In this document: positions 7,361 to 7,917 of the stretch, in pieces
How positions within the stretch are numbered: position 1 is the first letter of the stretch
How the letters are laid out: each line of letters starts with the position of its first letter
NCBI GenBank assembly: GCA_002863045.1
Contig: PKDH01000036.1
Location: forward strand, 3,630-67,629
DNA: 64,000 nt
Direction: 5' to 3'
DNA from: Legionella sp.
Lineage (GTDB): Bacteria > Pseudomonadota > Gammaproteobacteria > Legionellales > Legionellaceae
Notes under the pieces: generated by a model
What the model saw: the letters and a program-made list of their open reading frames with translations, nothing else
Told to the model about the DNA's origin: nothing
Databases searched by the model: none
Position numbers and translations under genes: made by a program

Positions 7361-7492
7361 ATGACAGATAAAAACCCACCTAAAAAAGACCAAACAGAAA
7401 AAAGCAAACAATTGGATGAAAACTTAGAGGATACTTTTCCAGCCAGCGATCCATTACCTCTTACTCCAAAATCTAGTAAAGGTAAGGATTAA
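7361..7492 (+). CDS. Small ORF (43 aa) MTDKNPPKKDQTEKSKQLDENLEDTFPASDPLPLTPKSSKGKD
   Basis: Not in the ORF track because it is too short. AAGGA lies about 5-6 nt upstream of the ATG, within AAAAAAGGATAATTATG. The LDExLE(D/E)TFPASDP core matches a motif I recall from many small proteobacterial proteins of unknown function. Its stop overlaps the stop of the convergent ribH-like gene by 4 nt. Confidence 0.6.
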   Translation: MTDKNPPKKDQTEKSKQLDENLEDTFPASDPLPLTPKSSKGKD

Positions 7493-7917
7493 ATCTTAAT
7501 TTTTTTATTAAGATTTAATAAATAATTTAAAGCTTCTACCGCTTCTTTGGCGCGATGACCTTGTTCGACACGCTCTGTTAAAAGAGCGTGTGTTGAAGCA
7601 GTAACAATCGCATTGCCAAAAAATTTACCTTGTAAGGTAAATTGGATAAAACATTCTTTTAAGTGTTGCCAAATAAATTGATAGTGATCAGTGCTACCCT
7701 CTAATACCAATCCTAATAACAAATAACCACGATAAGGTCGATGTTTTTCAAATTGCAAGAGCACAGCAGGTAATTCATAGGCACCTGCTTTAACGTGCTC
7801 AATATCATATGTTAAACAAGAATGTTGTAAAAATTGTTCGCATTGTTGTAAATGCTTTTTAGCAAGTGTTGCATAATAAGCTGAAGAAATAACTAAAACA
7901 CTATTTTGGTTAGACAT
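7489..7917 (-). CDS. ribH: Divergent 6,7-dimethyl-8-ribityllumazine synthase (RibH)-like protein
   Basis: 142 aa. KAGAYELPAVL aligns with the VPGAYELP motif of RibH. GLVLEGSTDHYQFIW aligns with G(T/A)VIRGGT.HFEYV, and NAIVT aligns with FGVLT. It is shorter than, and diverged from, the canonical enzyme. It sits inside the bio cluster rather than the rib cluster. Confidence 0.7.
   Translation of the reverse strand: MSNQNSVLVISSAYYATLAKKHLQQCEQFLQHSCLTYDIEHVKAGAYELPAVLLQFEKHRPYRGYLLLGLVLEGSTDHYQFIWQHLKECFIQFTLQGKFFGNAIVTASTHALLTERVEQGHRAKEAVEALNYLLNLNKKIKI

Follow-up and report, generated by a model that had tools for sequence, protein, structure and literature searches.

Canonical lumazine synthase (RibH) is an icosahedral Type-I enzyme, as in E. 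coli, B. subtilis and Aquifex, and two regions of the protein, the N-terminal arm and the loop bearing Lys135, have been tied to the assembly of its pentamers into 60-mer capsids. Lumazine synthase is under discussion as a target for drugs, MAIT-cell antigens arise from its substrate, and Legionella longbeachae is a model in the MAIT field. Brucella encodes two lumazine synthase isoenzymes, and either RibH1 or RibH2 alone suffices for viability (PMC2828483). RibH1 is a Type-I pentameric protein (2F59, 2I0F, 2O6H; NF000814 type), and RibH2 (BLS) belongs, like the RibH2 of Mesorhizobium, to Type II (NF009084).

Here, we analyze a 64,000-nucleotide stretch of Legionella sp. DNA (the window) in which a divergent ribH-like gene lies within a biotin operon. 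Its product groups with a RibH1-like lineage made up of two clades, which we term A and B. We consider it probable (roughly 0.8) that this clade A protein is the only lumazine synthase of its species, that its lineage has replaced canonical ribH in about one-fifth of the sampled Legionellaceae, and that the gene came to lie in the bio operon through a lineage-specific insertion.

Results

A ribH-like gene behind bioH

The gene begins 7 nt (7918-7924) after the stop codon of bioH (Table 1), in keeping with an earlier reading of the letters alone (the sequence-only reading), which had described a lumazine-synthase-like gene of 142 aa at this place in the bio operon. It shares a stretch of about 2.9 kb with an opposite-strand 43-codon ORF and a 755-aa gene; a 210-nt spacer separates it from the latter, whose last 4 nt, with the stop codon, overlap the start of bioD. 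The 755-aa protein weakly resembles Dot/Icm effector alpha/beta hydrolases of the SdbB/SdbC type (NF045526 at 43 bits, far under the cut-off of 400). At its 3' end the ribH-like gene overlaps the 43-codon ORF by their stop codons.

Just upstream of bioB, in the divergent region between bioA and bioB, we found an 11/12 match to a sigma-70-like promoter (TTGACA, 16 nt, TATCAT), which is likely the promoter of the bio operon. It was the sole strong promoter-like site in a promoter and terminator scan of positions 4000-11000, where counts were not above those in shuffled sequence. The ribH-like gene is probably read through from the bio promoter and co-transcribed with the bio genes. Rfam scans of the window and 14 related loci detected no FMN riboswitch close to the window's rib genes or to clade A genes. 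A 262-nt contig spans positions 7306-7567 with zero mismatches; its source run is labelled metatranscriptomic and is probably DNA, and it is not evidence of expression.

Table 1. Positions of the genes and intervals of the window that are discussed in the text
Feature	Positions	Strand	Remarks
Divergent RibH gene (clade A, RibH1-like predicted lumazine synthase)	7489-7917	-	142-aa/142-codon ORF
bioH (pimeloyl-ACP methyl ester esterase)	7925-8677	-	TIGR01738 193 bits, just below the cut-off of 207
bioF	8628-9773	-	upstream of the RibH gene, same direction
bioB	9760-10749	-	upstream of the RibH gene, same direction
Sigma-70-like promoter match	10748-10775	-	likely bio operon promoter
bioA	10791-12104		divergent from the bioB side
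bioD	4376-5014	-	downstream of the insert
755-aa/755-codon gene	5011-7278	-	predicted membrane segments
Inserted stretch	5015-7924		about 2.9 kb between bioH and bioD; from comparison with the bio operons of relatives
43-codon ORF	7361-7492	+	motif LEDTFPASDP; tail-to-tail with the RibH gene
ribD	49475-50578	-	passes equivalog cut-off
ribBA	48253-49461	-	both domain models passed
pyrG	46470-48140		112 nt after ribBA
ribBA-pyrG gap	48141-48252		112 nt; canonical ribH site in relatives, empty here

The protein has the lumazine synthase fold and resembles Brucella RibH1

The window protein matches the Pfam DMRL_synthase family (PF00885) at 53.6 bits against a cut-off of 26.7, with residues 6-136 aligned to model positions 3-137 of 139. 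An AlphaFold (AF2) model, made from an alignment of 11 relatives, has a mean pLDDT of 90 and a pTM of 0.85, and its best PDB matches in Foldseek are the Brucella RibH1 structures 2F59 and 2O6H (TM 0.80-0.87, 23% identity); a sequence search of the PDB again placed Brucella RibH1 on top, in the same order as the structure search. The remaining Foldseek matches listed are lumazine synthases, a designed particle on the same fold and, lowest, an archaeal pentameric riboflavin synthase (2B98, a lumazine synthase paralogue). The motifs KAGAYELP and GLVLEGSTDHYQFIW, which the sequence-only reading had quoted, are present and align to PGAxEIP and LGxVIRGxTxHYDYV of canonical RibH. The protein is a member of the lumazine synthase family and has its fold.

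Curated models of RibH equivalogs do not recognize the protein: it scores 66.2 bits with NF000814 (cut-off 174) and 36.1 bits with TIGR00114 (cut-off 84.6), and representatives of clades A and B likewise fall below both cut-offs. The Type-II lumazine synthase model NF009084 gave no match to the window protein at E values up to 0.1. We rejected identity as an archaeal-type riboflavin synthase, a distant relative of the same fold, since its TM of 0.66 is the lowest among the family matches, the NCBIfam scan of the window protein brought up no model for archaeal riboflavin synthase, and the genome encodes an ordinary bacterial RibE.

Brucella RibH1 is the best match to the window protein in both sequence and structure, and shares with it a short N-terminus, a GNG motif replacing Phe113, and the set of an aromatic residue at position 22, His88, Arg127 and a basic residue at position 135. 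The window protein differs from RibH1 in overall sequence, as the low identity and the NF000814 score indicate, in an alpha4-alpha5 loop that is four residues shorter, and in having Arg in place of Lys135; unlike the Brucella isoenzyme pair, it is a sole isoenzyme, and its gene lies outside the rib operon. With canonical gammaproteobacterial RibH (TIGR00114 type) it shares the fold, the predicted reaction and the PGAxEIP-like and GxTxHY motifs; unlike canonical RibH, it is encoded apart from a ribD-ribE-ribBA-ribH operon and, compared with the Legionellaceae proteins, is only 16-17% identical, is about 15 residues shorter at the N-terminus and has no G(T/G)K(A/H)GN-type loop. Type-II enzymes also have the same fold (TM about 0.8 to 2OBX and 1T13), and like the Type-II RibH2 of Brucella the window protein is of an ‘extra’ isoenzyme kind in an intracellular bacterium (PMC2828483). 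Its structure and sequence matches to Type II are weaker than those to RibH1.

The missing N-terminal arm and the four-residue deletion in the alpha4-alpha5 loop, which bears the Lys135 equivalent, make a pentamer or decamer more likely than a 60-mer capsid, judging from the regions tied to assembly in known enzymes. A two-copy (homodimer) complex prediction with alignment A3 scored 0.02, below the mark, which is not evidence either way.

Putative catalytic residues are conserved

Equivalents of six residues, whose catalytic roles are taken from published mutagenesis and structures of the Bacillus enzyme, were identified by aligning the window protein with RibH of B. subtilis, RibH1 of Brucella and the canonical Legionellaceae RibH. 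Glu58, Thr86 and His88 of B. subtilis RibH correspond to E48, T76 and H78; Phe22 and Lys135 are conservatively replaced by Y14 and by R122, the latter within the shortened loop; and Arg127 corresponds to R116 in two alignments out of the three. At each of the six positions, conservation among 120 clade A database proteins is 99-100%; the predicted catalytic set is shared by the window protein and its clade. The sequence-only reading, which had singled out Phe22, His88, Arg127 and Lys135, held that several substrate-contacting positions differ; the catalytically important ones are kept, not lost.

Two clades distinct from canonical RibH

A profile of the protein's relatives, searched against 1.84 billion representative proteins, found just three cluster representatives with E values better than 1e-30, below which scores fall to those of ordinary short RibH1-type lumazine synthases (55-110 bits). 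In a tree of 106 sequences, the Legionellaceae relatives of the window protein form one group (SH-aLRT 94) consisting of clade A (38 rows including the window protein, from nine GTDB genera; support 95) and clade B (27 rows; support 99), and the family's canonical RibH is placed apart from both. The A/B lineage is closest to Brucella RibH1, and we interpret it as a separate paralogous or xenologous lineage that is confined so far to Legionellales.

Clade A and clade B genes are usually adjacent, and the window genome has clade A alone. Some 20 Legionellaceae genomes have such adjacent pairs (L041-L060; for instance L055:4053-4478 next to L055:4485-4904). Clade B proteins have lost the equivalents of aromatic-22, Thr86, Arg127 and Lys135 and keep those of Glu58 and His88; they may be non-catalytic partners, or proteins with a new function.

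A profile search of database proteins found 292 proteins, and at NCBI and JGI the orthologues of L. busanensis, L. gresilensis, L. beliardensis, L. micdadei, L. longbeachae, L. qingyii and further species already carry the name ‘6,7-dimethyl-8-ribityllumazine synthase’. The literature searched, outside which most subscription journals lie, yielded no paper on the A/B lineage, the displacement of canonical ribH, the degenerate twin or an assay.

The A/B lineage is found where canonical ribH is absent

We scored 199 Legionellaceae genomes for the A/B lineage and for canonical RibH, and found the two to be complementary. The A/B lineage is the only RibH-like protein in 38 of the 199 and full canonical RibH the only one in 155; a fragment of canonical RibH alone, a truncated match at a contig end, occurs in two, both lineages occur in two (G015 and G183), and neither is found in two genomes that are 54% and 81% complete. 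Thus 38 of the 40 carriers of the A/B lineage, which span nine GTDB genera, lack canonical RibH, and all 40 keep RibE. In G015, which has clade A, the canonical copy lies on a contig of just 1.7 kb, and the assembly is 4% contaminated; G183 has canonical RibH and clade B only. Related genomes are not independent samples, and the pattern of replacement still recurs in many genera, always with the same clean deletion.

In two gammaproteobacterial genomes outside Legionellaceae (G301 and G426), clade A coexists with canonical RibH, and one of the two also has clade B. This coexistence suggests that the lineage can first be present as an additional copy, with loss of the canonical gene coming later, and that clade A may have had another role before it took over. 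These two-copy genomes resemble the two-isoenzyme state of Brucella (PMC2828483).

The canonical site itself is empty in the window. The conserved order in Legionellaceae is bepA / ribD-(ribE)-ribBA-ribH-pyrG, with ribH present at the ribBA-pyrG junction in G003, G008 and G140, and in six genomes of four genera with clade A only (the window genome, G000, with G001, G012, G018, G155 and G192) ribBA is followed directly by pyrG. The sequence-only reading was right that the window's ribD and ribBA lie 13 nt apart in a cluster without ribE and ribH, and we regard this pair as a remnant of the family's ribD-(ribE)-ribBA-ribH operon.

The window genome (1.98 Mb, 69 contigs, 99.99% complete) has no second PF00885 match besides the gene behind bioH; in an assembly of 69 contigs, a gene might still lie hidden in a gap. 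RibE is intact on another contig (G000:C12, about 35177-35848; L002:1201-1872), where it encodes a two-domain protein of 223 aa that passes equivalog cut-offs. The sequence-only reading had left open whether another ribH and a ribE lie elsewhere, and these searches answer both points. Since the other riboflavin steps all have conventional genes, the divergent gene is the sole candidate for the lumazine synthase step.

A lineage-specific insertion in the bio operon

Five relatives from three genera share the order bioA / bioB-bioF-bioH-bioD-(zinc-ribbon gene)-aspS, in which bioH is followed directly by bioD. The window genome keeps this frame, with the insert added between bioH and bioD. The same layout is found in a marine metagenome contig of about 98% identity and in long contigs from three marine metagenome studies, and so is a fixed feature of this species, and of this species only among those examined.

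Elsewhere the neighborhoods of clade A genes vary: some members of the same genus have the gene behind hflK-hflC-purA, and others have it in different places. No neighbor is conserved family-wide, with purA, a 413-aa gene and others conserved within sub-clades only, and none of about 50 other loci examined has bio genes beside clade A. The proposal that the gene fills a bioC slot was also rejected: BioC is encoded elsewhere in the genome and passes its cut-off, and the family's bio operon is normally without bioC. The link to biotin is most likely a local accident of position and not a functional tie.

Purifying selection and a burst of change

Compared with the 98%-identical marine strain, the ribH-like gene shows 5 non-synonymous changes against 10 synonymous ones; these small counts give a dN/dS of 0.12, and the frame is intact in both. 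This value lies within the range for bioB, bioF, bioH and bioA in the same pair (0.04-0.26); in the 755-aa gene, the N-terminal part has a dN/dS of 0.41, and a 6-nt indel separates the strains. The ribH-like gene is under purifying selection.

Over longer times the window copy has changed quickly. Its identity to other clade A proteins is 48-52%, against 58-80% among those proteins themselves. Its branch is the longest in the clade, and it differs from the clade A consensus at 18 of the 68 positions that are highly conserved, including W11S, N13A, T46A, P67L, K73E and G103A; none of the 18 falls in the catalytic set. RibBA shows no comparable acceleration in the window species. The burst could reflect either relaxation or adaptation after the move, and the consensus departures and long branch make a lowered or altered activity possible.

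Discussion

We propose that the clade A protein encoded behind bioH acts as the sole 6,7-dimethyl-8-ribityllumazine synthase of its species. A predicted pentamer of Type I, similar to Brucella RibH1, it would join 5-amino-6-ribitylaminouracil, supplied by RibA and RibD, to 3,4-dihydroxy-2-butanone 4-phosphate, supplied by RibB, and RibE would convert the lumazine product to riboflavin. On the genomic side, clade A would have taken over from canonical ribH in this and about 38 other sampled species, with the canonical gene deleted between ribBA and pyrG, and in the window species the gene would have arrived between bioH and bioD along with the 755-aa effector-like gene. The protein's enzymatic activity, its oligomeric state and the co-transcription with the bio genes are inferred.

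A different view is that this paralogue serves some other function, for instance in regulation, in biotin synthesis or as a scaffold to which flavin or lumazine binds, and that lumazine forms non-enzymatically or by an unknown enzyme. Lumazine condensation does proceed slowly without an enzyme, the protein scores far under the RibH equivalog cut-offs, and clade B shows that this lineage can drift from catalysis; clade A is also found beside canonical RibH in G301, in G426 and, on the small contig of a contaminated assembly, in G015, and the window gene lies only 7 nt behind bioH. We nonetheless consider this unlikely, given that the full catalytic set is almost invariant across clade A and that the lineage is near-perfectly complementary to canonical RibH in genomes that always keep RibE. 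The recruitment to a biotin function suggested by the sequence-only reading fares no better, because the bio linkage is seen in this species only, bioH being followed by bioD in the relatives, and because BioC, the sole bio gene absent from the operon, is present elsewhere and leaves no biotin step unfilled.

The genome's single RibH homologue and its empty canonical site would also be expected if canonical ribH itself had moved out of the rib operon and diverged, remaining an orthologue. This is extremely improbable: the protein clusters with 37 further members of clade A (SH-aLRT 95) next to clade B (94 for A and B together) and apart from the canonical clade, it is closest to the NF000814/Brucella RibH1 type and shares little identity with canonical RibH, and some genomes have both clade A and canonical RibH. 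What stands of the sequence-only reading's ‘relocated, fast-evolving ribH’ is the role, which as the sole homologue the protein very probably fills, and the fast evolution of this copy; the canonical gene did not move and was cleanly lost at the ribBA-pyrG junction, and the gene behind bioH belongs to a separate lineage. Decay of both the gene and riboflavin synthesis, in a host-dependent bacterium that imports riboflavin, would fit the small genome, the long branch with its many consensus departures, and a split clade A/B gene in another genome (G201, below). We regard it as very unlikely, since the dN/dS between the two strains is low with both frames intact, frame and layout are kept in marine contigs from three studies, and RibD, RibBA and RibE are intact with no acceleration of RibBA.

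Beyond our main reading, clades A and B could together represent a distinct, Legionellales-specific class of lumazine synthase, in which A is catalytic and B, often in tandem, is a non-catalytic partner, with different kinetics or regulation. Such a class would have repeatedly displaced canonical RibH, including in L. longbeachae and L. micdadei, and would have been re-tuned in the window species after its capture by the bio operon. This broader idea is speculative, and we think it rather doubtful; if it were true, it could change the pool of 5-amino-6-ribitylaminouracil, which is both the RibH substrate and a precursor of MAIT-cell antigens.

For the window species, our preferred reading, in which the clade A protein is the only lumazine synthase, means that the riboflavin pathway has no missing step and that the biotin link is incidental. 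More broadly, about one-fifth of the sampled Legionellaceae species, including those that NCBI names L. longbeachae, L. micdadei, L. busanensis, L. gresilensis and L. beliardensis, would run riboflavin synthesis on a predicted lumazine synthase that curated equivalog models do not recognize and that is often accompanied by a catalytically degenerate twin. Part of this is known already, in that orthologues are named lumazine synthase and the window protein is a further housekeeping enzyme of a divergent subfamily. The interest of the system lies in the family-wide replacement and in the enzyme's biochemistry rather than in the link to biotin.

Several observations in other genomes touch on the same pathway. 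In G201, which is 99% complete, the sole RibH-like gene (G201:C77:34262-34677; L038) is split by a stop or frameshift into pieces of 79 and 62 aa, and canonical RibH was not found in this genome, of which all but about 2.6 kb was covered; given that gap, the split may stem from genuine gene loss or from the assembly. The RibE of the window genome is a stand-alone gene of the NF009566 type, 30-33% identical to the rib-operon RibE of other Legionellaceae, and G192 and G003 are likewise without an operon copy of ribE, so that the final enzyme of the pathway, too, is of two types with a patchy distribution. In three species within the same genus, canonical-type ribH genes occur as tandem pairs, of about 163 and 124 bits (G005:C2:1778089-1779011, G010:C12:34961-35883 and G013:C2:1640008-1640924), and the four Lum_binding domain matches in these genomes, twice the usual number, suggest a second RibE-like gene elsewhere.
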